From a virus (taxonomy: Duplodnaviria; Caudoviricetes), in IMG/VR virus record IMGVR_UViG_3300010340_000989, positions 1 to 64,000 of that record: a DNA stretch of 64,000 nt; one strand, 5' to 3'. Positions 3,321 to 59,495 of the stretch are shown here, one piece after another. The translations under genes were made by a program, and so were the position numbers. The notes beneath the pieces were generated by a model that saw only the letters and a program-made list of their open reading frames with translations, was not told the DNA's origin and made no database searches. Positions within the stretch are counted from its first letter, which is position 1, and the number at the start of each line of letters is the position of its first letter.

Positions 3321-3539
3321 CTAATTTTTTTTCAATAGTTCACCAATTTTCCTATCTCTGTGAAGTTGATATAATCTATCAAAGAATTCTTGATCGAGTT
3401 CAGTGGTTGTGTATCTTTGACCATCTGTTCCTTCATAATAATAATGCTCAAGACTATATTTATATCCTTTAAAATTAATATCAATTATCTCACTTTTAAG
3501 TGGCAAATTATAATGCGCCATCATTTTAATATCTGTCAT
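3321..3539 (-). CDS. hypothetical protein with C-terminal tag
   Basis: Ends RDRKIGELLKKN. Confidence 0.7.
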   Translation of the reverse strand: MTDIKMMAHYNLPLKSEIIDINFKGYKYSLEHYYYEGTDGQRYTTTELDQEFFDRLYQLHRDRKIGELLKKN

Positions 3540-3826: not shown

Positions 3827-3874
3827 GATATTACTTCAAATTTTATAAGTTTAAATGCAAATATATAAATAAGA

Positions 3875-4471
3875 ATGAGATATTTAAAACTATTTGAAGA
3901 ATTTGAAGGTGAACATATTTCCTCACATCTAAGAGGTCGTGGTATAGATCCTACTAAAACAAGACTGATAATTGACGAAGAAACAGAAGATACTTACTTC
4001 TTCTTGTATAATCTATCTGGTCAAATGGTTGGATATCAAAAGTACAATCCAAATTATCAAAAAACTGGTCAAAGTAATTTAGATAATCCAAGAATGGCTA
4101 AGTACTTTACGTGGGTATCCGACGAAGACAAAGGTAAGAAGATTGCAGTATGGGGATTAGAATCAACAGAATTTACAGATAAATATCTTTTTGTAACTGA
4201 GGGTATATTTGACGCAGCGAGAATACAAGAAGCTGGTCACCCAGCAATTGCAGTTCTTTGTAATGATCCAAGTGATTCTTTAAAATCTTGGATTTCAACA
4301 CTACCTCAAAAGAAAATTGTTATCTATGATAACGATAAAGCAGGTAGAAAATTAAAAAAAGTTGGTGATTTTTCTTATACGGTACCAAGTGGAAAAGACG
4401 CCAACGATTTATCACCAGAAGAAGCTAAAGTCTTCTTAGAAAATTGTTTAATTAATTCTGGATTAAGGTAA
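3875..4471 (+). CDS. Toprim-domain (primase-like) protein with capsid-targeting-like leader
   Basis: VTEGIFDA, YDNDKAG, KDAND Toprim motifs; N-term MRYLKLFEEFE; AAATATATA at 3859-3867. Confidence 0.75.
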   Translation: MRYLKLFEEFEGEHISSHLRGRGIDPTKTRLIIDEETEDTYFFLYNLSGQMVGYQKYNPNYQKTGQSNLDNPRMAKYFTWVSDEDKGKKIAVWGLESTEFTDKYLFVTEGIFDAARIQEAGHPAIAVLCNDPSDSLKSWISTLPQKKIVIYDNDKAGRKLKKVGDFSYTVPSGKDANDLSPEEAKVFLENCLINSGLR

Positions 4472-4712
4472 TTTTTAAATCTCTAAGATTTTCTTTACTG
4501 AGAATATTAAAGTTAATGACTTTAAATAAAAATTCTATTTGTTCATTTGATAAGTATTCAATATCTTTTATTACTCGGATATAATCTGATGTTATTTCTT
4601 TTAAAACTAATAATTCATTTCTTCTAACATCAACTGCAAATTCGTATAATTGTCTTTCAATTGCCCAACTTTTCAAAGATTGAACTGCATTTATTTTATC
4701 CTGACTAGTCAT
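4452..4712 (-). CDS. UVR/ClpC M-domain-like small protein with C-terminal tag
   Basis: AIERQLYEFAVDVRRNE; ends RDLKITLIQN. Confidence 0.6.
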   Translation of the reverse strand: MTSQDKINAVQSLKSWAIERQLYEFAVDVRRNELLVLKEITSDYIRVIKDIEYLSNEQIEFLFKVINFNILSKENLRDLKITLIQN

Positions 4713-5040
4713 TTTCTCCTAATATTTTAGATATTATCTCTTGTCTTATCACAGATATCATTATAACATCGTGTAATTGTTTTAAATTATTTTTTAACTC
4801 CTCATTAATTTTATCTGTTGAGTATTTATTAATAAGTCTTTCAATACGATCATAATATTGAAGTGAGTCAAGTGAATTAACTCTTATCCAATCAATTTCT
4901 GCTTTGTTAAAAGGATTTATAAATAAATCTTTTTCAATATCTCTAACTAATGCACCAAACTCATAGTATTGATTAGTAACCGCAATTCTTTTAATATTTT
5001 TAAGACAAATTTCAAATGATTTATGTTCTCTCGGTGTCAT
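4705..5040 (-). CDS. UVR/ClpC M-domain-like small protein with C-terminal tag
   Basis: AVTNQYYEFGALVRDIEK; ends RQEIISKIL. Confidence 0.65.
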   Translation of the reverse strand: MTPREHKSFEICLKNIKRIAVTNQYYEFGALVRDIEKDLFINPFNKAEIDWIRVNSLDSLQYYDRIERLINKYSTDKINEELKNNLKQLHDVIMISVIRQEIISKILGEND

Positions 5041-5311
5041 TTTCTAAAATTTTATTTATAATATCTTCTCTAATCTTTTGTCTAAAACTGTTTAATAAGT
5101 TCAATAAATCTGAAGATATTGTGGTAGTATTAATCACATCATTAATCCAATTGTAATATTTATTAATACTTAAAGTCTCCTTTTCACTATTTATTAGAGT
5201 TTTTTCAATATTTCTTAAGATAGCGGCGACTTCATAACTTTGACTTCGCACTACTAAAATTTTAACTTTTACTATAAATTCTTTAATTAATTCATATTCA
5301 TCTTGTGTCAT
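5021..5311 (-). CDS. UVR/ClpC M-domain-like small protein with C-terminal tag
   Basis: VVRSQSYEVAAILRNIEK; ends REDIINKIL. Confidence 0.65.
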   Translation of the reverse strand: MTQDEYELIKEFIVKVKILVVRSQSYEVAAILRNIEKTLINSEKETLSINKYYNWINDVINTTTISSDLLNLLNSFRQKIREDIINKILENDTERT

Positions 5312-5453
5312 TGATATTTTTTAATATTTTTTCGATTTTTGAAATCTTTGTATGTTTTATCGTAAAGTACATAGTAATAGTACTTGGATAAAGAGATGAA
5401 AAATCCATATTAACGATTCTACTTTGTTCTACGTTGAGTTTGATATTATCCAT
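5298..5453 (-). CDS. 51-aa protein carrying an isolated PolB motif A
   Basis: Likely start ATG5453 (track start 5516 lies deep in upstream gene); VNMDFSSLYPSTI. Confidence 0.6.
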   Translation of the reverse strand: MDNIKLNVEQSRIVNMDFSSLYPSTITMYFTIKHTKISKIEKILKNINDTR

Positions 5454-6174
5454 TAAATTCTTTATTAAATATATCAAAATTATTACCAACAGAATTATGA
5501 TCATTAATAATTGCAAAAACTATATTATCAAAATCAACAGAATATCCTTCACCAATTAATACTTCACTAAAATATTGTGCCATTGTTTTGGGATCATTTT
5601 TAAAAACTCCACATCCCCAAGCACCAAGTATTAGATTCTTAACTCCATTTTGAGCTGCTAATGAAACCATTAATCTTATTTTATTTTTAGTTACATTTCT
5701 ATAATCTTTTATATTTTGTACTGGATCATATTTAGCATTCTCATTTAAATTGATAGCAGATATTGTCACCACATCACAAGTAATTGGTTCCATATATTCA
5801 TAGTTATTATCTTTGAAGAAGATAGCATCTTTTGTATATAGTGATTCATTTTCTTCTAATGGATAAAAACTATTAGGAACAACATGAATTAGATTAGAAC
5901 ATCTAAATAAACATTCTTCTTGTGCTCTGGCTCCATTATAAACACCACCACCTGGTCTTTTATATGATGCCATATTTAATACACAGGTCTTACCTAATTT
6001 AGAATATTCAACAACTGCGGAAACACTATCAGTATTTATGATATTGACAATATCTTTAAACATTGTTAATCTTGGCGGATTTCTTTCATCAAAAGTATGT
6101 TTTGATGTTATTGAATCTCTTAGATTCTTACTATTTTCTAATGTATCTTGAAATACATTTACTAAATTTTTCAT
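5446..6174 (-). CDS. bacterial-type PARG macrodomain (TIGR02452/DUF2263-like)
   Basis: LNMAS..PGGG...GARAQEE.LFRCS, LILGAWGCGVF.N. Confidence 0.88.
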   Translation of the reverse strand: MKNLVNVFQDTLENSKNLRDSITSKHTFDERNPPRLTMFKDIVNIINTDSVSAVVEYSKLGKTCVLNMASYKRPGGGVYNGARAQEECLFRCSNLIHVVPNSFYPLEENESLYTKDAIFFKDNNYEYMEPITCDVVTISAINLNENAKYDPVQNIKDYRNVTKNKIRLMVSLAAQNGVKNLILGAWGCGVFKNDPKTMAQYFSEVLIGEGYSVDFDNIVFAIINDHNSVGNNFDIFNKEFNG

Positions 6175-6494
6175 ATTCCTAATTCATTTAATTTACGATT
6201 TCTATCAATTGATAATTTCTTTCTAGTTAAAGTAATATTATCTATGCCTATACATTTATCATTATCATCTATGCCTATACATTTATCATTATCATTTGAA
6301 CATAATGAACACTTACATTTTTTATTTGTTTTTCCGTCTATTTTTTCCGAAGTTTTAAAGATAATTATTCCAGATTGAGTAAAACGATCTATTGTAAATT
6401 CTAAATCTGGAAAATAACACATTTTAATACCTGGGCATTTTTTAATCATTTCTTTCCAATTAATAATAAATTTATCTCCTATCTCTGGTATCAT
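6171..6494 (-). CDS. Cys-containing hypothetical protein with C-terminal tag
   Basis: CKCSLC; ends RNRKLNELGI. Confidence 0.7.
   Translation of the reverse strand: MIPEIGDKFIINWKEMIKKCPGIKMCYFPDLEFTIDRFTQSGIIIFKTSEKIDGKTNKKCKCSLCSNDNDKCIGIDDNDKCIGIDNITLTRKKLSIDRNRKLNELGI
6241..6294. repeat. perfect 27-bp tandem duplication (in frame)
   Basis: tctatgcctatacatttatcattatca x2, encodes DNDKCIGID twice. Confidence 0.9.
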
Positions 6495-6736
6495 ATTCCC
6501 AATTTTTCTAAATTATAATCTCTGACTAATTGAATAAATTCATCTTGACTTATAGCTCTCATGCAATTATCCCAGATATTGATAGTCTCTTTTGTTCTAA
6601 AATTTATCCAAGTGCAATCTGTTCCAAAATTTCGAATATATCTATCGGTGTGAAGAAATTCAAATTCAAAAACATCATCACCATTATACCAATTTTGTAA
6701 AGAATATTCTTGTTTCATCTTATACAATTTTTTCAT
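6491..6736 (-). CDS. hypothetical protein with C-terminal tag
   Basis: Ends RDYNLEKLGI. Confidence 0.72.
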   Translation of the reverse strand: MKKLYKMKQEYSLQNWYNGDDVFEFEFLHTDRYIRNFGTDCTWINFRTKETINIWDNCMRAISQDEFIQLVRDYNLEKLGI

Positions 6737-6987
6737 ATTCCTAATTTATTTAGAATTTTTTCTCTATTCCATTGATTATAGAAATCAATAACATATTCTA
6801 ATCCAAAAATGTGATCAATTTTGCGTTTTTCAATTTCTAATTTTAGTTCTTCCCATATTAAGTCTCTAGTACCAAATTTTATACCAACATCTGACCAATT
6901 TCCAGGTTTATTCCAATCATACCAGTTTTTATGGGTTAGGTAATAATGTTCATTTAAATCTTTAGTTATTTCTAAAAAATATTTCAT
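6733..6987 (-). CDS. hypothetical protein with C-terminal tag
   Basis: Ends REKILNKLGI. Confidence 0.72.
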   Translation of the reverse strand: MKYFLEITKDLNEHYYLTHKNWYDWNKPGNWSDVGIKFGTRDLIWEELKLEIEKRKIDHIFGLEYVIDFYNQWNREKILNKLGI

Positions 6988-7172
6988 ATTCCTAAATCAT
7001 TTATTTTAATGTCTCTTATTGTAGATTTACCTGGTACTACTTCAAATTCTTTCTCACTAATACCACACCCATCATTATTACCTAATCTGCAATTTTCACA
7101 GTCCATATCTGGATCCTCATGAACACACAATACTCTCTCATATAAAGGATCAAACATTACATATACTTTCAT
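6984..7172 (-). CDS. small Cys-rich protein with C-terminal tag
   Basis: CENC; ends RDIKINDLGI. Confidence 0.7.
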   Translation of the reverse strand: MKVYVMFDPLYERVLCVHEDPDMDCENCRLGNNDGCGISEKEFEVVPGKSTIRDIKINDLGI

Positions 7173-7834
7173 ATGCCAAGTTTTTCTATTTTATCATCTC
7201 TAATAAAAGTTTTGATTAGATCAATTGCTCTTTGAGCATCTTTTCTATATCCTTTTACTTCAAAACTTTCCTTTTTAATCACGTATCTTTTTTTTTCTTC
7301 AATATAAATATAAGGAATTTCTTCAATATCATACGGAATATTAAATCCTAATAGATCTAACTCTCCACAATAAAAAATAATATCAGTATCAATATATAAT
7401 ATTTTATTTTTATTTATTTCTAAAAGATCATTATAATAAGCAGTTAAATATTGAGATAACATAGTGGTATAATCAACATCTCCAATTTTAGACATATATG
7501 AGAGAGTTCCATAGAATGAATTTATATATGTTTTATATTCTTTATAAACCTCCGAATCAGACTTTAATATTAATTTATTTTTATTAAAATAATCGAATTT
7601 TTTATTAAATTCAATCATTCCCATTCTCAATTTTTCACTTGCCATTTCATGATATCCAGAATCTATTAATCCACAGATTATATTTGGATATAATGATGTA
7701 AATGTAAGTTGTTTAACTTCTTTCAGCGGAATACCTTTTATAAAAGGATTTACCCAAATAAACCCAAACAACTGTACATTTTGGTAATAATCTGGTTTGC
7801 CTATGGCATTTTTATATTTATCTAAGAGCTTCAT
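7169..7834 (-). CDS. miniature family-B DNA polymerase palm-like protein (motif A Asp absent) with C-terminal tag
   Basis: TFTSLYPNII (A), KTYINSFYG (B), YIDTDIIF (C), KKRY; ends RDDKIEKLGI. Confidence 0.75.
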   Translation of the reverse strand: MKLLDKYKNAIGKPDYYQNVQLFGFIWVNPFIKGIPLKEVKQLTFTSLYPNIICGLIDSGYHEMASEKLRMGMIEFNKKFDYFNKNKLILKSDSEVYKEYKTYINSFYGTLSYMSKIGDVDYTTMLSQYLTAYYNDLLEINKNKILYIDTDIIFYCGELDLLGFNIPYDIEEIPYIYIEEKKRYVIKKESFEVKGYRKDAQRAIDLIKTFIRDDKIEKLGI

Positions 7835-8015
7835 CTATTTTTCTATTTCTAAAATCACTTAATAGTTCAAAATTATTTGAGGTAACATGCATTTTACCAA
7901 ACGTTGGGTGCCATATAACCAACCAATCGGGATTAAATGAATAAACTTCAAATATATCACCCTTCTTATAGGGTTGAGAATCTTCTATAGCTATTACTTT
8001 CAAATCAATTTTCAT
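7818..8015 (-). CDS. small beta-barrel-like protein with C-terminal tag
   Basis: YKKGDIFEV; ends RNRKIDEALR. Confidence 0.65.
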   Translation of the reverse strand: MKIDLKVIAIEDSQPYKKGDIFEVYSFNPDWLVIWHPTFGKMHVTSNNFELLSDFRNRKIDEALR

Positions 8016-8721
8016 CCAAAATTTGATTTATTTTAATATCTCTAAATTCTGATATTGATGGTATCCAGTTATGATTAGAGTATTTATTCTGATAGTCAGG
8101 ATATATTTTTTCTTTAAACATTCTATCAAAATTTCTGAATCTCATAGGAAACTCTTTACATATTTGAATTAATATTTCAAGCATTTCATTATAAGCAATC
8201 CAACATTTCTCACTAATTCCAGTAGAAATCTGAATATCTATTTTATTACTTATTGGATCAATAATTTCAATTATATCATATTCAATAGATGAATTTCCAA
8301 AAGGTCTTTTATCGGCTGTTGATATAATAATTGTATTATCTGGTGATTGATTATCATCAAACCAATTTTTATATTGACCTTGATCAAAATATAATTTATT
8401 AATTAAAGATATATGATGTTTTTTTATTTTATTTCTTTCTATAAATTCCGGACTTAAATCATCGAATAGTATATGACGTGTTAAAAATTGTAAAGCCAAT
8501 CCACATCGATTATAAAAATCACCTGGTGATAAATCCTTACGATACTTTTCAATAACTTCCATGTTATCACTCTCAATGGTTGCTAAAACTTTAGCACAAT
8601 AACAACCTTCTTTAAAAACCCATTTTATTTCTTTAATTGCACTTACAACATTTTCAGTTAAATGCCAATTTGAATATTGACTATATGAGTAATATAAATC
8701 TTCCGGATTAATTCTTGCCAT
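8005..8721 (-). CDS. hypothetical protein with C-terminal tag
   Basis: Ends RDIKINQILDEN. Confidence 0.75.
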   Translation of the reverse strand: MARINPEDLYYSYSQYSNWHLTENVVSAIKEIKWVFKEGCYCAKVLATIESDNMEVIEKYRKDLSPGDFYNRCGLALQFLTRHILFDDLSPEFIERNKIKKHHISLINKLYFDQGQYKNWFDDNQSPDNTIIISTADKRPFGNSSIEYDIIEIIDPISNKIDIQISTGISEKCWIAYNEMLEILIQICKEFPMRFRNFDRMFKEKIYPDYQNKYSNHNWIPSISEFRDIKINQILDEN

Positions 8722-9070
8722 AAAATTGTTTTAATTGTTCTAACTTATTCATATCACTTTCTGGTATTGAGTATCTATACCATTTTACATAAAATGGCGC
8801 TAATGAATTGGTAATCATACCATTTTCAAGTAGATAATCTCTACTACTTGATCTTTGACCACAATCCGTTTTATGACTTCCTTTAAAACCCGATCCGCCT
8901 CTAAAAGTTCCTGTATCATTTTTATCACTATACCTGGATGAACCCTCTTGAGCCTTAGTCATAGCCATCTCAATTAATTGTGTTAATTCGTCATTAATTG
9001 GTTCTTTTAATTTATCTTCTTTAGAAGGCTCTATGTAAAGAAGGTATTTTGATTTATCGTCTCTATTCAT
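8708..9070 (-). CDS. hypothetical protein
   Basis: ORF in operon. Confidence 0.7.
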   Translation of the reverse strand: MNRDDKSKYLLYIEPSKEDKLKEPINDELTQLIEMAMTKAQEGSSRYSDKNDTGTFRGGSGFKGSHKTDCGQRSSSRDYLLENGMITNSLAPFYVKWYRYSIPESDMNKLEQLKQFYGKN

Positions 9071-9075
9071 AATTT

Positions 9076-10134
9076 TTATTTATTTTCTTTTATCCAAACA
9101 TCATCATGTGTAGTATTTGTATCATAGATAGCATACTCAATTTCTACCTTTTCATAAATAAATCCATTCAAAGTAAGTAGCTCTTTAATTAATTCAATTT
9201 CATTTTTAAATGTTTTATATCCACACACATTATTTCTATATGTGATCATGTTTATAAACTTAGAACCATCTTTTGACTTCTTAAAGAAGTTTTGACTTAA
9301 TTTTACTACTCCGCCTAATACATTTTCTTCTATATTTAGATTTGATACAAAACTATTAAGTTCTTTTTTCTCATCTGGTGTAATTACAACACCAATATGA
9401 CTTTCAAAATAGCAATCATTTGGTATTGGACCATCAATTATAGGTGCTGCTGAATGCCATGGCACTGTTTCAATCTTTTTACGAATTACCTTATATCCAA
9501 AATTAAATAATTTATTAGAAATTCTCTCAGATTCTTCATAAGCACTTCGATTATCACCAAAATGTTTAGAAGAAGTCATAACATCTTTAATTATAGATCT
9601 ATCATTAATTTCCAAATCTATAATAATTGGTTTAACTCCAATTTTAAAACAATCATCTTTAAATTTATCTAAAATATTAGACATCCATTTTTTTCTTTCA
9701 GATTTTCTATCTTCAATTGGATATTTGATTACACCTTCAGATTGTATCTTTTCAGACCATATATTTGTAAATAACTCATCAAAATCAACTGAGACATGAA
9801 TTTCAAATGGTAGTGGGAAACTTGAATTATCTTCTTTAAATTGTATTTCTTGCCATTTAATTGATTTTTTTTGAATCATATCTTCAATTTCTTCATCAGT
9901 AAAATCTAATGAATACGCAATTGAAATATTAGTTAAATAAACATCTGCAATTTCTTCTAAAATCTTCTCACGATCAATAAATCGATGATTTGTTCCAGGT
10001 GCTGAATCGAAAGGCAAAATTGCTTTTGCTAATTCTCCCACTTCTTCACAAGTTTTAAGTGCTTTCTGAGAAAGTGTTTTTTTATCTTTTAAAGATAATT
10101 GTCGAATATATTTATTTAGATTAGTCATTATCAC
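9076..10134 (-). CDS. MazG-like NTP pyrophosphohydrolase domain fused to unknown C-terminal domain
   Basis: EEVGELAK...EEIADV; C-terminal FEIH/FESH motifs. Confidence 0.7.
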   Translation of the reverse strand: MIMTNLNKYIRQLSLKDKKTLSQKALKTCEEVGELAKAILPFDSAPGTNHRFIDREKILEEIADVYLTNISIAYSLDFTDEEIEDMIQKKSIKWQEIQFKEDNSSFPLPFEIHVSVDFDELFTNIWSEKIQSEGVIKYPIEDRKSERKKWMSNILDKFKDDCFKIGVKPIIIDLEINDRSIIKDVMTSSKHFGDNRSAYEESERISNKLFNFGYKVIRKKIETVPWHSAAPIIDGPIPNDCYFESHIGVVITPDEKKELNSFVSNLNIEENVLGGVVKLSQNFFKKSKDGSKFINMITYRNNVCGYKTFKNEIELIKELLTLNGFIYEKVEIEYAIYDTNTTHDDVWIKENK

Positions 10135-10813
10135 TAAAAATAGATACTAAGCTTAAAAATAAATTTATAATATCCAAATATAATGATACTGCGATGTGTA
10201 GAGCATTTGTATAAGTCCTACCAACAGTTGATGCTCTATACATATCATATCCAATATAAACAGAGAAGATACCTGCAGCGATATAGTCAATGATAGTCAA
10301 TCCTGCCAAAGCTGGTATAAACATTTGTAAAACTCTAACAATAACTAACCCAAGTAATGAATAGAATAAAACACCTCCAAGATTTTTAAACAGATTAGGA
10401 TAAGTATATCCAGCAAACATCATTAGTCCAGTTATAATTGATGTTATCAAAGCGGCATCTTGTACAATAGTCGGATCTATTCCATTAGCAATAGGACCCA
10501 GACATAAACCAATTGGTAATACAATCATGTTATATCCTATAAAAGAAATAGGTAAATTGTCATTCATTGCAATAAAACATCCAATTAAGGGAATTACTAA
10601 TCCAACACCAATTAAAAATCCCAGACTTGGGATAGCTGGTGCGAAAAAAGCAGCCATAATATATGTTACTATCAATCCATAACCAATAAAAGCTCCTATA
10701 GATCCCATAAAAGATCTTTCGGAAATTATTGATAAACTATTTCGTCCAAAAACTCCAGTTTTAAATTTTTTCATATTTTTTATTAATTTATTTTTTTCTA
10801 ATTGTTGTTCCAT
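10121..10813 (-). CDS. Bax inhibitor-1/YccA family membrane protein
   Basis: About 7 hydrophobic segments, YIGYD, A.SLYLDIINLFL; true start probably ATG10774. Confidence 0.85.
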   Translation of the reverse strand: MEQQLEKNKLIKNMKKFKTGVFGRNSLSIISERSFMGSIGAFIGYGLIVTYIMAAFFAPAIPSLGFLIGVGLVIPLIGCFIAMNDNLPISFIGYNMIVLPIGLCLGPIANGIDPTIVQDAALITSIITGLMMFAGYTYPNLFKNLGGVLFYSLLGLVIVRVLQMFIPALAGLTIIDYIAAGIFSVYIGYDMYRASTVGRTYTNALHIAVSLYLDIINLFLSLVSIFSDND

Positions 10814-11111
10814 CTACATCTCCACTAACATCACCACATGTTATTGTTGTTCCATCTACATCTCCACCAACATCCCCACATCTAATTGTAGTTCCATCTA
10901 CATTTCCTAACACATTACCATTTATAGTTGCGGTTGTGCATTCAAGATTTGCGATATCTCCTTCAAATTTAACTTCAACTATTCCAGATAGACCAGATTC
11001 TACTAGAATACCATCAACATAAATTTTATCATTCATGATTGAAATGTTTTTCCCACTAACCGAGTGAGATTTACCATTAATTACAATTTTATTCTTATTG
11101 AAAATTCCCAT
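10788..11111 (-). CDS. small beta-repeat protein (GDVxGDVDGTTI repeats)
   Basis: C-terminal G[DN]V.G[DN]VDGTTI repeats. Confidence 0.7.
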   Translation of the reverse strand: MGIFNKNKIVINGKSHSVSGKNISIMNDKIYVDGILVESGLSGIVEVKFEGDIANLECTTATINGNVLGNVDGTTIRCGDVGGDVDGTTITCGDVSGDVDGTTIRKK

Positions 11112-11113
11112 TT

Positions 11114-11455
11114 TTAATTTAAAAGTTTATTTAATTTATTATCTCTTTTAAGATCTTTGTGATTTTCGAAAAATTTATCTACTATTTTAGCAGCATATAT
11201 TTTACTACTATTTCTTTGATAATTTCTGGCACTATATTTTATCATCAATTTTAAAAAGAAAAATCTAAAAAGTGATATTCCGATGGAATCTGGACTAATA
11301 GTATCATTGCCGATTTTTATATTACCGCTTTCTAGTAAAGTAAAATAATCATTAGAATATAGAGTACTATATTCTCTCCAAACCCCACTTCTACATTGTT
11401 TTATAAACAACGATTTCATTTCACTAATTTTTTGTTTAGCTTCTTTTAATTCCAT
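11114..11455 (-). CDS. hypothetical protein with C-terminal tag
   Basis: Ends RDNKLNKLLN. Confidence 0.72.
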   Translation of the reverse strand: MELKEAKQKISEMKSLFIKQCRSGVWREYSTLYSNDYFTLLESGNIKIGNDTISPDSIGISLFRFFFLKLMIKYSARNYQRNSSKIYAAKIVDKFFENHKDLKRDNKLNKLLN

Positions 11456-11921
11456 TTCTTATTAAATTTATAAAACTATAATTATATTGATTCTTTTCAT
11501 CAAACTTATATTCTTCTTTACTTTCAATTATCCAATCATTCATATCAACATCTACAAACCATGTATCTGCCTCAATTTCAGCATCTAATATTGTTGCATA
11601 AATCTTATCAGCAAATATAAGTGAATTTTTGTAAATCTCACCACCTCCGATAATAAAAATATCTTCTTTAATATTTTTAATTTCTTCAATTGATTTAATT
11701 ATTTCAACCCCCTCAATTTCAATATCCTGACGACTTATCACAATATTTCTTCTATTTGGTAGTGGTCTTCCTATCGAATCAAAAGTTTTTCGACCCATCA
11801 CAACCGTATTACCAGTCGTTAATTCTTTAAATCTTTTTAAATCAGCAGATTGTCTCCAAACAAGTGTATTATCTTTACCTATTCCTCGATTTTTATCATA
11901 AGCGACTATAATGTTTATCAT
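11436..11921 (-). CDS. folA: dihydrofolate reductase
   Basis: GIG..N.L.W..SADLKRFK, VMGRKTF.SIGRPLPNRRNIVISR, IIGGGEIY. Confidence 0.95.
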   Translation of the reverse strand: MINIIVAYDKNRGIGKDNTLVWRQSADLKRFKELTTGNTVVMGRKTFDSIGRPLPNRRNIVISRQDIEIEGVEIIKSIEEIKNIKEDIFIIGGGEIYKNSLIFADKIYATILDAEIEADTWFVDVDMNDWIIESKEEYKFDEKNQYNYSFINLIRNGIKRS

Positions 11922-12181
11922 TTTAGTATTTCATTTATTTTTCTATCTCTATGTAACGCTTTGAATTCAGATAAAGTTATAAAGTGTAAGTGTAAAGTAT
12001 CAGTATTGAATTCAGCAGGAATATTATCTTTATCTAAAAAAGTTGTAATATGTTTATCAGAAACCGTAAAAGAGAATGTTGTGTATAATTTACCATACTC
12101 AAATCTTGAAGTATGATCTCCTATATAGACTCTCTCTAATCTATAAATACGACCTGGAAGTGGATGATTTTGTATATTCAT
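11918..12181 (-). CDS. hypothetical protein with C-terminal tag
   Basis: FEYGKLY; ends RDRKINEILK. Confidence 0.72.
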   Translation of the reverse strand: MNIQNHPLPGRIYRLERVYIGDHTSRFEYGKLYTTFSFTVSDKHITTFLDKDNIPAEFNTDTLHLHFITLSEFKALHRDRKINEILK

Positions 12182-12618
12182 ATACCTAATTCTTCTAATT
12201 TAACATGACGATTATGTGAATCATCTAAAATAATCTCAGCTGATTCTTTTGGAACCCATCTATCTTGTAAGAATCCTAAAATACCACCCCTCATAGAAGG
12301 ATCTCTAGTAAGAGAATCATATCCTTTAAAATCAATTGCCCTTACTTTAATACTATTTTCAGATATATCCACAATTTCAATTTCATAATCAACATGAAAG
12401 TCTTTTTTATCTCCAGTATTTGATGTATGTGTTAATCCATAATTATTTAAAAGTGCTTTAGCGCCAATATAAAAATCAACACTTTTATTTTCTGAAGTAA
12501 TTTTCTCTTTTAGTTCTTTGATTTGTGATTTAAGATTTTTTCTATCTAAAAATAAAACAAAAATAACAGCTAAAAGCACAAGAGGTGTGATTGATAAAAG
12601 TAGTAAAATATTTTGCAT
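12178..12618 (-). CDS. N-terminally membrane-anchored protein with C-terminal tag
   Basis: Likely start ATG12618 (MQNILLLL, hydrophobic run); ends RHVKLEELGI. Confidence 0.7.
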   Translation of the reverse strand: MQNILLLLSITPLVLLAVIFVLFLDRKNLKSQIKELKEKITSENKSVDFYIGAKALLNNYGLTHTSNTGDKKDFHVDYEIEIVDISENSIKVRAIDFKGYDSLTRDPSMRGGILGFLQDRWVPKESAEIILDDSHNRHVKLEELGI

Positions 12619-12619
12619 A

Positions 12620-13261
12620 TTAATTAATTTTTGCTTTTTTCCAATTACGAGTCCAATGTTCATCCGTCTGAACGTGCCCTTTCCTAACCCACTTCATCAC
12701 GTTTTCCGCAAAATCATCATTATGAAACAGATCCGCATTTCTAACAACAATTCCTTCTCTTACACCACCCAATTCTGATGGTTGGGATGCGAGTTTCTCA
12801 GTAAGTTCTTTAAGTTCTTTTTGGGTATTTACCACACCTTTAAATAAAACAGGAACTGTTGGTATATCAAGAAGATATGAATATTCTTCTACTTTTTCCC
12901 AAGGAACCCAAATGTTATTATCTCTAATTCCGAAAATATAAAAATATGATGTTAAGTTAGTATATTCAATTGAATGAATACCTTCCATATTTTCACCAAA
13001 TAGATAAACACCATCACCCAATTCATCTTCAACTGAAAATTTATGAAGTGATCTAACTTCTCTAGACCAAGGAGATATGGTAAATGCTGCATGACTTCTA
13101 GCATAAACACCATGATCAGTCATTCCACAATTTTCACCATCTAGTTTTTCGGTAATAACAATTTCTTTACCTAAAAGTGAATCAACACTACTAGATATTC
13201 TATCATCATTGGTAGAACCAGGTGACCAAAATAGGTGATATGTTCGGTTATATTTTGACAT
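12620..13261 (-). CDS. RNA ligase (Rnl2-like nucleotidyltransferase domain)
   Basis: TEKLDGEN (motif I), FGEN, EGIVVR, KWVR. Confidence 0.85.
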   Translation of the reverse strand: MSKYNRTYHLFWSPGSTNDDRISSSVDSLLGKEIVITEKLDGENCGMTDHGVYARSHAAFTISPWSREVRSLHKFSVEDELGDGVYLFGENMEGIHSIEYTNLTSYFYIFGIRDNNIWVPWEKVEEYSYLLDIPTVPVLFKGVVNTQKELKELTEKLASQPSELGGVREGIVVRNADLFHNDDFAENVMKWVRKGHVQTDEHWTRNWKKAKIN

Positions 13262-53777: not shown

Positions 53778-54041
53778 TTAGATACCTAGAATTGATAAAT
53801 TTAACTCACGAAGATCCATAATATCATCTTTGTGTAGTTCATATCCTCTATAATCACCATCATCTAAATCATCGAATATATAAAATACCCAGTGATCATT
53901 AAGAAATGTTCCAGTCCATATAAATGCTAGATTGTATATTTTATTTTTGGTAAGCAACTTCTTACCAAAGAATATTGATGATTCTTTAGCATAAATATCT
54001 TCACCAATATATTTAATCTTATTTATCTTCAAGTATATCAT
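53778..54041 (-). CDS. small beta-barrel-like protein with C-terminal tag
   Basis: LTKNKIY; ends RELNLSILGI. Confidence 0.68.
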   Translation of the reverse strand: MIYLKINKIKYIGEDIYAKESSIFFGKKLLTKNKIYNLAFIWTGTFLNDHWVFYIFDDLDDGDYRGYELHKDDIMDLRELNLSILGI

Positions 54042-54543
54042 CTATTTTACCGTCTCGAGTTGCTGCCTTGCTAACAGTTTTTTTCAACTGCGTGATATAA
54101 TTATCATATTTATCATTTAATTCTTTTTCTGAGAAATATTTATTTCTTTTTTCTAAAAAGTCGAATATATCTTTTTGAATACTTTTTGATTCATCAACCC
54201 AACTAATAAAATAAAAAGAATCTACTTCTCTTGTGTAATAATTAGTATCATGAGAAATTATCATTTTTGTTAAATATTTATCTGACTCATATCCCCAAAG
54301 TGATGTTTCCGCCTTTTTAAAAATATCGACATGGAACTTAAATTGCATGTCTTTTTTTCTAATATCAAAACTATATTTAACAATTCTACCTTCAAATGTG
54401 GATTCACTATACTGTGGGTGAATATACTTAATAGATGATATATTATCCGGTCTGATCCACATATCATCTTCAAAAGAAATAACGGATTGATAAACTGTTG
54501 TTAATAAGTCTTTTAGTTTTTCATTTTTCATTTTATTCTTCAT
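54019..54543 (-). CDS. hypothetical protein with C-terminal tag
   Basis: Ends RDGKIDDILEDK. Confidence 0.72.
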   Translation of the reverse strand: MKNKMKNEKLKDLLTTVYQSVISFEDDMWIRPDNISSIKYIHPQYSESTFEGRIVKYSFDIRKKDMQFKFHVDIFKKAETSLWGYESDKYLTKMIISHDTNYYTREVDSFYFISWVDESKSIQKDIFDFLEKRNKYFSEKELNDKYDNYITQLKKTVSKAATRDGKIDDILEDK

Positions 54544-54781
54544 TTAATATGTTTTTTAGTTTGGCTTCTCGAAAAATTTGAGTAAATTTTTTATTATCAG
54601 ATAGTCCAATTATCTCATGTCTTTTATAAGAATAAAGTCTATTTTGGTTCATTTCATAAAAAACAACATCTCCATCATAGAATTCAACATAAATAAATCT
54701 ATCATCTAGTAATTTAGAAAATTTTATCTTACTAATACTAGTGCCAGGATATTGTTCGTGTATTATATCCTTAATGTTCAT
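54533..54781 (-). CDS. hypothetical protein with C-terminal tag
   Basis: Likely start ATG54781; ends REAKLKNILNEE. Confidence 0.68.
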   Translation of the reverse strand: MNIKDIIHEQYPGTSISKIKFSKLLDDRFIYVEFYDGDVVFYEMNQNRLYSYKRHEIIGLSDNKKFTQIFREAKLKNILNEE

Positions 54782-55022
54782 GATTACATTTTTTATGGTG
54801 TCTATAATCTCTAATACCAATTACTAAAGATGTGATTCCAATTATAGCCCAGATAAAAGCCAAAATCGGATTATGCATTAATTCATCAATCCAAGATTGA
54901 TGTTCATGAGATTCCATTGAATATGTTATTAAAAACATAGATTGGACAAATTGAATAATATGTGTTATTCCGTGTAGTAAATTTAAAACTCCAACCGAAA
55001 TAAGAAATAGTGATTTATTCAT
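54771..55022 (-). CDS. small two-TM, His-rich membrane protein
   Basis: Two hydrophobic segments. Confidence 0.65.
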   Translation of the reverse strand: MNKSLFLISVGVLNLLHGITHIIQFVQSMFLITYSMESHEHQSWIDELMHNPILAFIWAIIGITSLVIGIRDYRHHKKCNHEH

Positions 55023-55206
55023 TATTTAATATGTTATTAAGTGATATTTCTCTATATTCATCTATATCATAGAAATTATTAAAATCTGTTGTAATGATCT
55101 TATTTCTATCCGAAACTATTTTATATCTACAAGGCTTTACTTCAAGAACTTCATATGATTTACCCTTTGTTAGGTTATCTGTTTGTTTTTTCGATATTAC
55201 TATCAT
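55015..55206 (-). CDS. small beta-barrel-like protein with C-terminal tag
   Basis: NLTKGKSYEV; ends REISLNNILNNE. Confidence 0.7.
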   Translation of the reverse strand: MIVISKKQTDNLTKGKSYEVLEVKPCRYKIVSDRNKIITTDFNNFYDIDEYREISLNNILNNE

Positions 55207-55450
55207 TTAAAATTTTATTAAGTTTATAGTCACGAATTTCTCTTTCAAATTTTATTCTCGAATATGTATATGTTGCTAATGTCCTAGACTTATGATTCAA
55301 AACTAATTTTATTGTAAATGATTCATTATAATTTTGATGAAAATACATAGCCTCAATAATTTCTTTATCTTTTAACTTGGTCTTTGATAGTGTATTTTTG
55401 ATAAACCCTTCATCAAATCCCATATTTTTTAGTTTATCATCTATCCTCAT
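55175..55450 (-). CDS. hypothetical protein with C-terminal tag
   Basis: RDYKLNKIL. Confidence 0.7.
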   Translation of the reverse strand: MRIDDKLKNMGFDEGFIKNTLSKTKLKDKEIIEAMYFHQNYNESFTIKLVLNHKSRTLATYTYSRIKFEREIRDYKLNKILNDSNIEKTNR

Positions 55451-55709
55451 TTAAAATTTTATTAATTTTATAATCTCTTATAACAGGATTAATTTTATCT
55501 AAAATAAGTTTAACATGACTGCCATTTCCACTAGTATATCCAGAATAATACTCTGAAGCATTAATATCCCAATCTTTAATTAAATTAAAAATCACCTCAA
55601 AAAGTTCTGATTCAATTTCGTCTCTTGATGGACTTGGCATACCTGTAATACCTGTATTAGGTTTGGATGGTATGGGTGGTGTCGGAAATTTATTAGCTTT
55701 TATATTCAT
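55437..55709 (-). CDS. hypothetical protein with C-terminal tag
   Basis: RDYKINKIL. Confidence 0.7.
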   Translation of the reverse strand: MNIKANKFPTPPIPSKPNTGITGMPSPSRDEIESELFEVIFNLIKDWDINASEYYSGYTSGNGSHVKLILDKINPVIRDYKINKILNEDR

Positions 55710-55932
55710 TTGAGAGTATTATTTTAAATTTATTATCTCTTATCATTTCTTTTGTTAAAGGTTTTAACCTTTTTTGATCAGAACACCAAAAACATCTATT
55801 ACCTTCATGTTGATAATGAAATGTAAATGTATATGAACAATCTTCACAATAATATTCTTCACATTTATCACAAACATCTTCAAAGATATTAAGTGAATAA
55901 CAAATATGACAATATTTGACTTCTTCTGACAT
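55693..55932 (-). CDS. Cys-rich zinc-finger protein with C-terminal tag
   Basis: Four CxxC pairs; RDNKFKIIL; ATG55932. Confidence 0.7.
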   Translation of the reverse strand: MSEEVKYCHICYSLNIFEDVCDKCEEYYCEDCSYTFTFHYQHEGNRCFWCSDQKRLKPLTKEMIRDNKFKIILSNEYKS

Positions 55933-56087
55933 CAATCAACTTTTGAATCTGATAAAAAAACATCTAAAATTTTAAGTATAATGAGTTTTATTTCAGCTAA
56001 TTGACCTTCCTGATATTTTGTTTTTTCTTTTATAGATTCAAAAAAAGCTTTTCGTTCTAAAAGGTATTTATATATTTCCATTTCCAT
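55932..56087 (-). CDS. 51-aa hypothetical protein
   Basis: Not in track; MEMEIYKYLLERK...SDSKVD*, TGATG overlap with next gene. Confidence 0.55.
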   Translation of the reverse strand: MEMEIYKYLLERKAFFESIKEKTKYQEGQLAEIKLIILKILDVFLSDSKVD

Positions 56088-56108
56088 TTTATATATCTTT
56101 AAGTTATT

Positions 56109-56471
56109 TTATTTACCATAAACAAACCAAATTGGCTTTACTGATGCAAACATTCCCCAATCCTCGCTACCTACCCCACATCTTTCGGTTGATATTTCAA
56201 AAGCTACTTTTGTAGAACCATCAGTATCTGGTTCGATACCATTTGGAACTTTGTTATTTTCCCACCATCCCCAAGCAAAATCAATAGTTTGTTGAATATT
56301 AAATTTATAGGGAAATTTTTCACATTTATCAGAATATTTGGATAAAAATAGTTCGTTATTTTTTATTTTATATCCATCACATTTTTGATCTATTTGATCT
56401 AAAAAAATAAGACGAAACGCTTGTTCAAAAGATTCTTTAGATGTATTCCTAACTATTACTTCTATATTCAT
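56109..56471 (-). CDS. hypothetical protein
   Basis: EPDTDGS motif; TATATTTG at 56485-56492 (-). Confidence 0.7.
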   Translation of the reverse strand: MNIEVIVRNTSKESFEQAFRLIFLDQIDQKCDGYKIKNNELFLSKYSDKCEKFPYKFNIQQTIDFAWGWWENNKVPNGIEPDTDGSTKVAFEISTERCGVGSEDWGMFASVKPIWFVYGK

Positions 56472-56517
56472 ATTTAATTTTTTTCAAATATAGTTAAAAT
56501 TTTAATATATAACAAAT

Positions 56518-56769
56518 ATGAATCTAATGAAATTTGAAAATTTTAAAAGCAGAGGCGAAATAAGAAAAGAAGCTGATCAACTTCTTGGTAATCTACATGC
56601 AGCCTTACTTGGTAATATTGCTTATGATAATAGAGAAAATATTAAAAAATCAGTAGAAAATATTAAAAATTCTAATATAAATTGGGATAAAGATGTTGTA
56701 AAATCTGTTAGAGAAAAGTATAATGAATTAATGAAAGCATTAGAATGGCATATGAATAATTGGAATTAA
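56518..56769 (+). CDS. small protein with capsid-targeting-like leader
   Basis: MNLMKFENF; TAATATATA at 56503-56511. Confidence 0.7.
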   Translation: MNLMKFENFKSRGEIRKEADQLLGNLHAALLGNIAYDNRENIKKSVENIKNSNINWDKDVVKSVREKYNELMKALEWHMNNWN

Positions 56770-56990
56770 ATTAAAATTGACAACTTTTTATCTCTATATT
56801 CAGTCAAACTTAAAAATCTATTTGAACAATAATAGAAAGATTCTCCAACATCATTAGTTATTAAATACTCTTTTAAATCTTTTATAGAATCAATATTTTT
56901 CGAAACAAAATATTTCTCACCGATTGTTAAATTAACTATATCACTTGATGCACCATCACAAACACCATTATTAATACAAACTACCCACAT
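56766..56990 (-). CDS. small beta-barrel-like protein with C-terminal tag
   Basis: VVCINN..NLTIGEKY; ends RDKKLSILI. Confidence 0.72.
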   Translation of the reverse strand: MWVVCINNGVCDGASSDIVNLTIGEKYFVSKNIDSIKDLKEYLITNDVGESFYYCSNRFLSLTEYRDKKLSILI

Positions 56991-57319
56991 AAACTATGTA
57001 TTTTTTGGGATCTGATAATATCTCTATTATAATAGAGATATAGTTTTTCATATTCAGGAATGTCACATTCTATCCAAATTGTTCTATCACTGCCATAAAC
57101 TATCTCTGGTAAATACTTTTCAAGAGGTTTGGCATTATAGTTAGTTCCTAATACATACCATTTGTTATCTATTCTCTTCCAATTCACTGATATACCAAAC
57201 CAAACAACCTCACCATTTTTATATTCGACTCTTTGTGTATTGTATGGTCTAATTGATGTGTTTTCAATTGAGTATTCAAATTCAAAATGTTCCGTTTTAT
57301 TTACTAGATTTATAGTCAT
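56981..57319 (-). CDS. hypothetical protein with C-terminal tag
   Basis: Ends RSQKIHSLCG. Confidence 0.65.
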   Translation of the reverse strand: MTINLVNKTEHFEFEYSIENTSIRPYNTQRVEYKNGEVVWFGISVNWKRIDNKWYVLGTNYNAKPLEKYLPEIVYGSDRTIWIECDIPEYEKLYLYYNRDIIRSQKIHSLCG

Positions 57320-57680
57320 TATATAATTCTTTTATTTTATTGAATTTCTTATAATTTTCAAAAACATCTGATAAATCTGGATGAATTATAGAATCGACAT
57401 TTGATTTTGTAAAAAACGGATTTGTAGAGCATATAATTTTTTCCGAACTTCTAATAAATTGATATTGTTTTAGATACTTTTTCATAATTGTCGTGCAAAG
57501 TAGTTCATAATGTGAATAAAGTTTGTTCTTTTTAGTAAAAGGGAATAGTTTATAAACTTTTATAAGTTCTATAATTCTGGATTCATCATCAATATTTTCA
57601 AAATCAAAATTACTAAGATCTATAAAAGGTATATTATCACTTTTTAGTAAATTAAAAAACACTTCTAAAAAATTATTCAT
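57297..57680 (-). CDS. hypothetical protein
   Basis: ORF in operon; weak tag-like KFNKIKELY. Confidence 0.65.
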   Translation of the reverse strand: MNNFLEVFFNLLKSDNIPFIDLSNFDFENIDDESRIIELIKVYKLFPFTKKNKLYSHYELLCTTIMKKYLKQYQFIRSSEKIICSTNPFFTKSNVDSIIHPDLSDVFENYKKFNKIKELYNDYKSSK

Positions 57681-57982
57681 TCTATCAAAAAATCTATTTT
57701 ATATTCTCTTTCTAATGTGAGAATTTTTAACCAAGTTCCTGTTAAATCACTATTATTATAAATATATCCATCTATTTTACCATAATTGGATTTTTTAAAA
57801 TCTGATACTAATACATCTCTAATTTCATTCTCATTCGGACATTTAAAATTATTTTCTTCACAAGGTCTATCTAGTATATATGCGTTACTTAGATATAAGT
57901 AATCGGAAATAACTTTGAATACAGAATATTCTAAATTTTGATTATCAATATAAGTTAATTTAATTTTTTCAACTTTTATCAT
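57677..57982 (-). CDS. hypothetical protein with C-terminal tag
   Basis: Ends REYKIDFLIE. Confidence 0.68.
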   Translation of the reverse strand: MIKVEKIKLTYIDNQNLEYSVFKVISDYLYLSNAYILDRPCEENNFKCPNENEIRDVLVSDFKKSNYGKIDGYIYNNSDLTGTWLKILTLEREYKIDFLIE

Positions 57983-58247
57983 TTAATAAATCATTAATTT
58001 TAATATCTCTGTTTTTAATAGTTGTTGGTGGTAGTTTTTTAACATCTTCAATTGTTTGAATAACTTGTTCAGGATTTAGATATCCCATAACATCATTTGT
58101 TATTGGAGTTTCATAACATATCTCATAATCTTCTTCTTCTCCAATTAAAATAGCGATTTCATATAAACCATTTAGACCACCATAAGAGAATTCATTTGAT
58201 ATTATACTAATACCATATCCATTTGAGTAAAAATATTTTTGATCCAT
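57969..58247 (-). CDS. conserved phage protein (NGYG.S...SYGG..GLYE.A) with C-terminal tag
   Basis: TPITNDVMGYL; ends RDIKINDLLN. Confidence 0.72.
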   Translation of the reverse strand: MDQKYFYSNGYGISIISNEFSYGGLNGLYEIAILIGEEEDYEICYETPITNDVMGYLNPEQVIQTIEDVKKLPPTTIKNRDIKINDLLNDKS

Positions 58248-58319
58248 TTATGATTATATTTAAGATAAACTAATAGTTGTTATTCGATATATTTTATTAT
58301 TTTAATATATAACAAATAT

Positions 58320-59018
58320 ATGAAATATTTAAAAAGATTCAAACAAATTTGTAAGAAAAATCAATTTATTAAAGAATCTAATCAGAAATTCGATGGTGAT
58401 GATAGATGGGTGGAATATGATCCTGCAGATAGTGGAATATCAGCTAAACGAATATGGAGATACCCTATATCTAGTAGATTCAATTGTTTAGTAAGAATGA
58501 CGGGTCAGAATGGATTTTATGATTTTGTTTTTTATTTCGAAGATATAGAATTAGATCGAAGATATTTTATGGATTATCTATATAAGGAACCTATTTCATA
58601 TAGAGGTTATAGAAAATTAAATTCTAATAATGCGATAGAAATATGTAAAGATCAATTGGATTTTTATAAACAAATAGAGCTTTTCCCAACAGAAAATGAG
58701 ATAAAAGAGTCACTTTATGTTTTTAAAGATGAGGATATTTACTTAAATGAAGATGGTGAAATAAAATATGGATATAGATACGAAAAATCATCTGATCCTG
58801 ATAACTCTGATTTAGTAGAGTGGCATTATAGAAAATTCAATGCAGGATTTATATGTGCTTTCATTATGGAAAAATATGAAAACAAATTTCCAGATAATAT
58901 TTCATCGCTAATAAATGAATTTAAATTTAATATTGAGAATATTACTAACAATGAATATGAGATAGAATATTATATTGATACTAGAGGATTGGTAATAATA
59001 TTAGACCCATCATATTGA
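58320..59018 (+). CDS. protein with capsid-targeting-like leader; paralog of 61833
   Basis: MKYLKRF..QFIKES; W.E.DP...GISA; TAATATATA at 58303-58311. Confidence 0.75.
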   Translation: MKYLKRFKQICKKNQFIKESNQKFDGDDRWVEYDPADSGISAKRIWRYPISSRFNCLVRMTGQNGFYDFVFYFEDIELDRRYFMDYLYKEPISYRGYRKLNSNNAIEICKDQLDFYKQIELFPTENEIKESLYVFKDEDIYLNEDGEIKYGYRYEKSSDPDNSDLVEWHYRKFNAGFICAFIMEKYENKFPDNISSLINEFKFNIENITNNEYEIEYYIDTRGLVIILDPSY

Positions 59019-59028
59019 TGGGTCTAAT
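59000..59028. terminator. perfect 13-bp hairpin between convergent genes
   Basis: attagacccatca-tat-tgatgggtctaat with A/T-rich flanks. Confidence 0.7.
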
Positions 59029-59033
59029 TTAAT

Positions 59034-59213
59034 TTAATTTTCTAATACTTTATCGATATTAGCTTCTCTAATTTTTGCTCGAATCCAAGAAGTATCTTTT
59101 TCTAAGTCACTATCTGTAATAGATAATTGATCCATAATTGTTTTTAACAGAAGATTTCTGTTTTCATAGTAATAGCTTTGTTTTTCTGACATTTCGCCTT
59201 CTTGTGAAATCAT
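59034..59213 (-). CDS. 59-aa protein with C-terminal tag
   Basis: Not in track; MISQEGEM...IRAKIREANIDKVLEN*. Confidence 0.68.
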   Translation of the reverse strand: MISQEGEMSEKQSYYYENRNLLLKTIMDQLSITDSDLEKDTSWIRAKIREANIDKVLEN

Positions 59214-59249
59214 AATATTTATTTATTTTATTAGTTATAATTTTTATTT

Positions 59250-59495
59250 TTAAATAAGTTGATCTAATAATTGATCAATTATTAAATCTCTTTTATTTTT
59301 AATCCACTCTTTATATAACTCAATTTTAACTATTTCAAACCAATAACTGCCAGGAAATCCATGATTTCCTATTTTAATATCGATATACACATAACCAATT
59401 TTAAATGATTCACAAAATGTATCAAGACCATGATGATCGTTATAAGAACGACATTCTTGTAAAAATTTTGTCAATAACTTTTCATTAACTTCCAT
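59250..59495 (-). CDS. hypothetical protein with C-terminal tag
   Basis: Ends RDLIIDQLLDQLI. Confidence 0.68.
   Translation of the reverse strand: MEVNEKLLTKFLQECRSYNDHHGLDTFCESFKIGYVYIDIKIGNHGFPGSYWFEIVKIELYKEWIKNKRDLIIDQLLDQLI

Follow-up and report, generated by a model that had tools for sequence, protein, structure and literature searches.

What are two pieces of a DNA polymerase doing in one string of small genes of a phage? The question is raised by positions 7169-7834 and 5298-5453 of a 64,000-nucleotide stretch of DNA (the window), which is the first 64 kb of the 165-kb IMG/VR record IMGVR_UViG_3300010340_000989 (CheckV completeness 52%), a huge freshwater phage. The first open reading frame (ORF) encodes a protein of 221 amino acids (aa), here called mini-PolB, with motifs of a family-B DNA polymerase (PolB); the second encodes a 51-aa microprotein that is essentially the PolB motif A. 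The original prediction, made on this DNA before our analysis, located both ORFs correctly (they lie on the minus strand) and saw in them a fragmented polymerase, either a split enzyme complemented in trans or a pair of inactive mimics. That they are real, selected, PolB-derived proteins was borne out by what follows; that they are parts of one enzyme was not. We consider it about evenly balanced (a probability of roughly 0.5) that each of the two ORFs is an accessory gene in its own right, conserved in a lineage of huge phages, carved from the PolB fold and provided with the C-terminal tag of that lineage. The features are listed in Table 1.

As modelled, the mini-PolB is a PolB palm and fingers core. 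Structure prediction had been proposed as a check, and the AF2 (AlphaFold2) model, built with 61 homologues, reached a pLDDT (predicted local distance difference test) of 90.2 and a pTM (predicted template modelling score) of 0.85. Foldseek matched it, with a probability of 1.00, to archaeal PolB, Escherichia coli Pol II and Pol alpha, and VIA-align placed its residues 21-221 on residues 385-646 of a Pfu-type polymerase (Z 11.2), which is the region of palm, fingers and first thumb helix. The single sequence gave no match in a Pfam scan (PF00136, with a gathering score of 23 bits, was not reached), no PHROGs family and nothing relevant in a PDB search. A family profile of 83 diverse members found archaeal PolB in the PDB at E 5e-9, with motif A paired with 'LDFRALYPS' and motifs B, C and KxY each with their own counterparts. 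As the alignment sets motif A on this sequence, Thr44 occupies the position of the catalytic Asp, and the earlier description of a protein with motifs B and C and a Thr for the motif A Asp is confirmed. So is the lack of an exonuclease domain; compared with a competent PolB, the N-terminal and thumb domains are missing too.

The mini-PolB is a stand-alone palm and fingers module that forms a large family of fixed length, ca. 215 aa. A word-indexed search returned 82 clusters at 90% identity, nearly all of 217-229 aa, and an exhaustive profile search at least 214 representatives at 50% identity, nearly all of 200-240 aa; not one full-length PolB was found among the best 150 profile matches. Pfam has no family that covers the 83 members (only 2 of them touch PF03175). 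The dN/dS (ratio of nonsynonymous to synonymous substitution rates), another of the proposed checks, is 0.05-0.28 within clades, at dS values of 0.17-0.97, so the protein is under selection. Small PolB-palm proteins may be more widely spread, given that the model also found fold matches in BFVD (TM score by target 0.39-0.48) among uncharacterised 240-290-aa proteins of cultured phages: A0A219YCA8 (Aeromonas phage 65.2, 241 aa), E1A1E4 (phiAS4, 252 aa) and A0A1G4GQI8 (Klebsiella phage PMBT1, 291 aa).

Residue conservation was counted over the 83 diverse members. By these counts, the family retains the residues with which a PolB handles the Mg-dNTP and the primer end: the steric-gate Tyr49 is kept in 81 members, motif B in its K/R (72), N (73) and Y/F (77), the motif C aspartates in 79 (D149) and 80 (D151), and the KxY motif, the primer-terminus contact of PolB, in its K (70) and Y (65). 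Position 44 behaves differently: it is Glu in 24 members, Ser in 19, Asp in 18, Asn in 7, Thr in 6, Gln in 4, His in 2 and Ile in one, and Ser, Thr or Gln, never Asp, in the close relatives of the window. Any small polar residue is tolerated at the place of the motif A Asp. No acid is found at either position 44 or 46 in 31 of the 83; 30 of these 31 have both motif C aspartates and 24 have motif B. Over the whole family, conservation is highest at Arg212 in the C-terminal tag (82/83); Lys215 of the same tag is kept in 63.

The microprotein is a motif A peptide, a strand followed by DFxSLYP, fused to a tag helix and selected at the amino-acid level. The intact DFSSLYPS that had been noticed is present (as NMDFSSLYPS). 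Its conservation across the 419 clusters of a family obtained by profile search at E<=0.01 (searched range 28-135 aa) shows that the match is not due to chance. A single-sequence search had given eight clusters of 51-73 aa. The best 120 of the 419 are 40-117 aa long and several were labelled family-B polymerase by JGI (Joint Genome Institute); short (49-53 aa) and long (70-79 aa) forms exist. In an alignment of 64 diverse members, the core has S, L and Y in all 64, D and F in 61 and P in 58, and the tag has K39 in 64, I40 in 60 and I43 in 61. Independent support comes from copies in synteny downstream of mini-PolB in two clades that are 50% diverged. The gene occurs as well in LR756502.1 and LR745206.1, two uncultured huge phages of 634-642 kb that are the only similar phage records; the close relatives of our record are metagenome contigs, one of them of 633,653 bp. 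Among 11 distinct copies the fixed residues are written in different synonymous codons (Ser as AGC, AGT, TCA and TCT, Leu in five ways, Asp and Tyr in both of theirs). The window copy matches PF00136 weakly, at positions 58-86 of the model (E 0.026, 13.8 bits), as it does the PHROG DNA polymerase family (E 0.007); it has neither motif B nor motif C. When its structure was predicted alone, only the tag helix (residues 33-50) came out with any confidence.

Gene conversion and a local mutation hot spot were both considered for the microprotein and rejected. Over the motif A stretch it matches the gp43A type (the replicase half that carries motif A, described below) in 8-11 of 20 residues and the mini-PolB type in 4-7 of 20; only 4 of 11 same-residue codons are identical to those of gp43A, which excludes recent gene conversion as the source of the conserved motif. 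The hot spot had been suggested by a comparison with the near-identical strain L038, but the changes are at the border of a recombination mosaic which begins at this place. This strain is identical over 5735-11453 and heavily diverged (window 3870-4420) across a Toprim-only primase gene (3875-4471, plus strand), with a sharp mosaic boundary. In relative L031 a mini-PolB of the '50% clade' (pN, the proportion of nonsynonymous differences, 0.34 to L013) stands with the microprotein type of the other clade (pN 0.11 to L013). The comparison of L031 with L013 and L005 suggests, from the sequences, that the microprotein cassette has been swapped between lineages.

The replicase of these phages has to be looked for elsewhere, and here the expectation of a full PolB in addition to the two small genes was borne out in part. 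In the 165-kb record, about half a genome, no PolA, PolB or PolC was found with PF00136, PF03104, PF00476 and PF07733, and tblastn with the gp43A and gp43B of the relatives matched only the microprotein (E 0.61). LR756502.1 and LR745206.1, which are complete, have a separate T4/RB69-type PolB, split at the fingertip into a gp43A-like and a gp43B-like gene 100-135 kb apart. The gp43A-like protein (512-515 aa) has the exonuclease domain PF03104, positions 18-147 of PF00136 and the motif A DFASLYPTT, and matches RB69 residues 185-493 at E 7e-24; the gp43B-like protein (474-476 aa) has motifs B and C, KKKY and the thumb. The mini-PolB gene lies at 631 kb in LR756502.1 and at 597 kb in LR745206.1, and that of the microprotein at 523.5 and 83.3 kb, so that both replicase halves and both small genes occupy separate sites in the two genomes.

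Both PolB-derived proteins carry the C-terminal tag of the lineage, as had been noted for a tag or tag-like helix: RDDKIEKLGI in mini-PolB, with the motif inside the last 16 residues, and a basic, Ile-rich helix in the microprotein. The motif R..[KRNQI][ILFM]..[ILM] stands in the last 16 residues of 43 of the 245 ORFs of the 165-kb record, where ca. 1 would be expected from its internal rate. Its consensus is R-[DN]-x-K-[IL]-x-x-[IL]-[GL], or R..K[IL]..[IL] in short form. The window microprotein has K in the place of R (K-I-S-K-I-E-K-I-L) whereas either R or K is found at this place in its relatives. Most of the carriers are short ORFs on the minus strand whose stop and start codons are fused, and strings of such tagged genes also flank mini-PolB in LR756502.1 (L012).

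Our best guess is that both proteins are tag-docked accessory modules of replication or of nucleotide handling. We read the mini-PolB as an accessory module because its binding residues are kept, the DNA-holding domains are absent and the motif A ligand is variable, and we infer that it is not a replicase. It would be a tag-docked factor that binds nucleotides and primer ends, with a transferase activity that might be weak, altered or none. The microprotein would probably not be able to fold alone; it would most plausibly dock, by strand addition, on a palm without a motif A strand of its own, and gp43B would be such a palm. When gp43 is split, the A-half contributes the motif A strand, which pairs with the motif C hairpin of the B-half; a free motif A strand would therefore be suited to dock on gp43B, where its part might be that of a placeholder, of a competitor or regulator, or of an alternative small subunit. 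There is a more specific version, which we think quite unlikely, in which the microprotein, as a mimic of the active-site strand, inserts its motif A strand into the gp43B half of the split replicase, either competing with gp43A (and so timing or throttling replication) or forming an alternative polymerase free of exonuclease; the mini-PolB would belong to this machinery too, as a second module that binds nucleotides and is recruited by its tag.

Several points weigh against accessory modules in general. The predicted partner of the microprotein, gp43B, was not found in the 52%-complete 165-kb record, and the accessory roles of both proteins are predictions from sequences and models. The near-invariant DTD, motif B and steric-gate Tyr fit an active enzyme equally well. 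The conservation counts over the 64 microprotein members are partly circular, as these sequences were collected with a profile in which motif and tag weigh most; the overall dN/dS of the microprotein is high (ca. 0.25-1), with fast evolution outside the core; and beyond the seven-residue core it matches gp43A at only 2-4 of 13 residues.

That the microprotein supplies the missing motif A Asp of mini-PolB in trans is one of the two options of the original prediction. It has in its favour that the two genes are in one gene string, 1-2.2 kb apart, in the window and two related clades, and that the mini-PolB of the close clade never has the Asp and the microprotein nearly always does. However, outside the window's own clades this linkage does not hold. 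According to a confident model the mini-PolB already contains a motif A strand and helix that are complete, which leaves no open slot, and therefore the microprotein duplicates a part and fills no gap. Two pieces of a split PolB should be collinear, should not overlap and should together restore a whole polymerase; here both hold motif A and the order is not collinear, with mini-PolB upstream of the motif A microprotein. Moreover, over 100 kb separates the genes in both LR756502.1 and LR745206.1, and the latter has Asp in the motif A of its mini-PolB ('IDFNSLYP') and has kept the microprotein all the same, which rules out that the microprotein goes with an Asp-less mini-PolB. Four loci (L021, L033, L003 and L014) have a mini-PolB and no microprotein within 6-10 kb. 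The members that lack an acid at 44 and 46 and still have motifs B and C, and a microprotein motif stretch nearer to the gp43A type than to that of mini-PolB, speak against it as well. A complex prediction for the pair (score 0.00) was run without controls and is not used as evidence. We conclude that a fragmented polymerase complemented in trans is very unlikely. That the ORFs are remnants of one PolB gene, decaying without selection, is hardly credible: neither reaches the Pfam gathering score and the microprotein frame of relative L019 is truncated, but both families are large and constant in length, the gene boundaries are tight and intact, and the dN/dS of mini-PolB and the motif residues fixed through synonymous turnover refute this reading.

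A serious rival, although we judge it unlikely, is that the mini-PolB is a true minimal polymerase or nucleotidyl-transferase, in which Ser, Thr, Asn, Gln or Glu, water or Mn2+ would replace the Asp ligand, and that the microprotein is unrelated to it. The near-invariance of motif C, motif B, the steric gate and KxY under strong purifying selection would be expected of such an enzyme, and known inactivated relatives of PolB have lost all of these motifs, which this family has not. Besides, the residue at position 44 is polar throughout, offering an O or N donor, and in 42 of the 83 members it is E or D. On the other hand, the motif A Asp coordinates both catalytic metals in all PolBs studied, more than a third of the members (the 31 above) have no acid at 44 or 46, and there is neither a thumb nor an N-terminal domain to hold the DNA. 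The mimics of the original prediction would act outside the phage's own replication, as decoys that titrate a host defence sensor or as inhibitors of a competitor's polymerase. Neighbours resembling counter-defence or nucleotide-pool genes (PARG/macro and MazG-like here, PRPP-synthetase-like and RNA ligase in relatives) are consistent with this, as are the fast evolution of the microprotein outside its core and its exchange between lineages, L031 combining a clade-B mini-PolB with a clade-A microprotein. Yet motif A is buried in a folded polymerase and would make an improbable surface epitope for a sensor, we know of no defence system that reads it, and a decoy would have no need of so strongly conserved a dNTP pocket. 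Decoys thus seem to us distinctly improbable, and tag-docked accessory modules remain our preferred reading.

Table 1. Coordinates of the PolB-derived genes, their motifs and associated features (positions in the window unless a relative is named)
Feature	Position	Strand	Evidence
Mini-PolB, 221 aa, palm and fingers core with C-terminal tag helix	7169..7834	-	ORF, AF2 model, profile match, family
Motif A-like TFTSLYP, residues 44-50; Thr44 at the catalytic Asp position	7685..7705	-	Alignment to Pfu 'LDFRALYPS'
Motif B K..INSFYG, residues 101-109	7508..7534	-	Family conservation
Motif C YIDTD, residues 147-151	7382..7396	-	Family conservation
KxY motif K182-R-Y184 (KKRY 181-184)	7283..7291	-	Aligned to Pfu KKRYA
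Mini-PolB C-terminal tag RDDKIEKLGI	7172..7201	-	Tag motif match
Motif A microprotein, 51 aa	5298..5453	-	Overlaps both neighbours; family; syntenic relatives
DFSSLYP core, residues 17-23	5385..5405	-	Conserved in 64-member alignment
Tag-like C-terminal helix K-I-S-K-I-E-K-I-L-K-N-I	5313..5348	-	Conservation; predicted helix
Microbial-type PARG/macro-domain protein, 242 aa	5446..6174	-	PF10021 E 1.2e-19; directly upstream of microprotein
Four small tagged ORFs, 62/84/81/107 aa	6171..7172	-	Each ends ..LGI, stop fused to next ATG
Tagged ORF regions (examples)	3321-3539, 4452-5311, 6171-8721, 11114-12663, 53778-59495	mostly -	Tag motif
Replicase halves of LR756502.1	L009:406-1944, L010:1432-2856		gp43A-like/gp43B-like pair
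Replicase halves of LR745206.1	L052 and L051/L053		gp43A-like/gp43B-like pair

The window has a G+C content of ca. 26% and no rRNA or tRNA genes were found in it. Its coding density of 95% under the standard genetic code indicates that this code fits; reading TAG as Q extended neither ORF meaningfully and altered nothing relevant. From 8721 to 4452 there are twelve minus-strand ORFs with start-to-stop overlaps throughout and no gaps: the ATG of the microprotein overlaps the stop of the PARG-like gene, and its own stop lies inside the start of the next gene. A shared transcript, as in the claimed common operon, is plausible from these overlaps. The scan for promoter and terminator consensus sequences did no better than shuffles and says nothing about the operon itself. 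The four tagged ORFs between mini-PolB and the PARG-like gene correspond, in a relative of 77% identity (L001), to a single 99-aa ORF (L001:10647-10946) homologous to the 107-aa ORF of the window; the two PolB-derived genes thus have an array of variable cassettes between them. An upstream ORF of 238 aa was considered as a further piece of PolB and discarded, as it has neither a family match nor a fold hint.

Neighbouring genes vary from lineage to lineage. The window has a MazG-like fusion of 352 aa (9076-10134), and the neighbourhoods of relatives (L001:3061-4026, L005:2254-3243) include genes for PRPP-synthetase-like, NT5C, DHFR and RNA ligase proteins. It is possible that these surroundings, rich in nucleotide and ADP-ribose functions, are a counter-defence or nucleotide-pool module. 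In L003 an IS605-type OrfB (TnpB-like) gene lies directly downstream of mini-PolB (L003:10765-11631), and the 10 kb beyond it contain neither the PARG gene nor that of the microprotein.

Family-B polymerases are among the best-studied enzymes. Even so, we found in the literature no description of a conserved 215-residue PolB family limited to palm and fingers, nor of a 50-80-residue protein that is essentially motif A, and Pfam has no model that covers either. These are two undescribed families of small PolB-derived proteins, although split and exapted PolBs are themes already known. That the motif A Asp varies where motifs B, C and KxY are fixed raises the question of what a PolB active site does with one metal ligand optional. 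If the microprotein docks on the split replicase, it would be a new way to regulate or re-equip a polymerase, and if it is indeed a strand mimic, the first case of an exchangeable polymerase subunit that is a microprotein with a single catalytic motif. The two proteins are also recognisable, polymerase-derived cargoes of an undescribed tag, and could help to find what reads it.

Among known systems, the naturally split PolBs (gp43A/gp43B of T4-like Aeromonas and Acinetobacter phages, and the PolB of Methanothermobacter) resemble this locus in having PolB sequence distributed over separate genes, and the halves of the fingertip-split gp43 reassemble into an active enzyme (PMC2988022, PMC3061061). 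It is the replicase of the complete relatives that shares the fingertip split of the T4-like phages, with its halves much farther apart than in those phages (the 100-135 kb given above; the distance is 2 bp to 3 kb in T4-like phages, whereas Methanothermobacter has 85 kb; PMC2988022, PMC3061061). Unlike these, the pair in the window does not add up to a polymerase, having no exonuclease, N-terminal or thumb part. The other likeness is to inactivated PolBs that have kept the fold outside replication catalysis, such as herpesvirus UL8, poxvirus F12 (PMC4304020) and the C-terminal half of Pol epsilon; UL8, a helicase-primase subunit of herpes simplex virus, is among the best structural matches to the mini-PolB (Z 10.1-10.5). 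These are full-length proteins in which no catalytic motif has survived. The mini-PolB has likewise retained the PolB fold, but only as a core of 200 residues, and without a general loss of motifs: B, C and KxY are under selection, and the motif A Asp alone varies.

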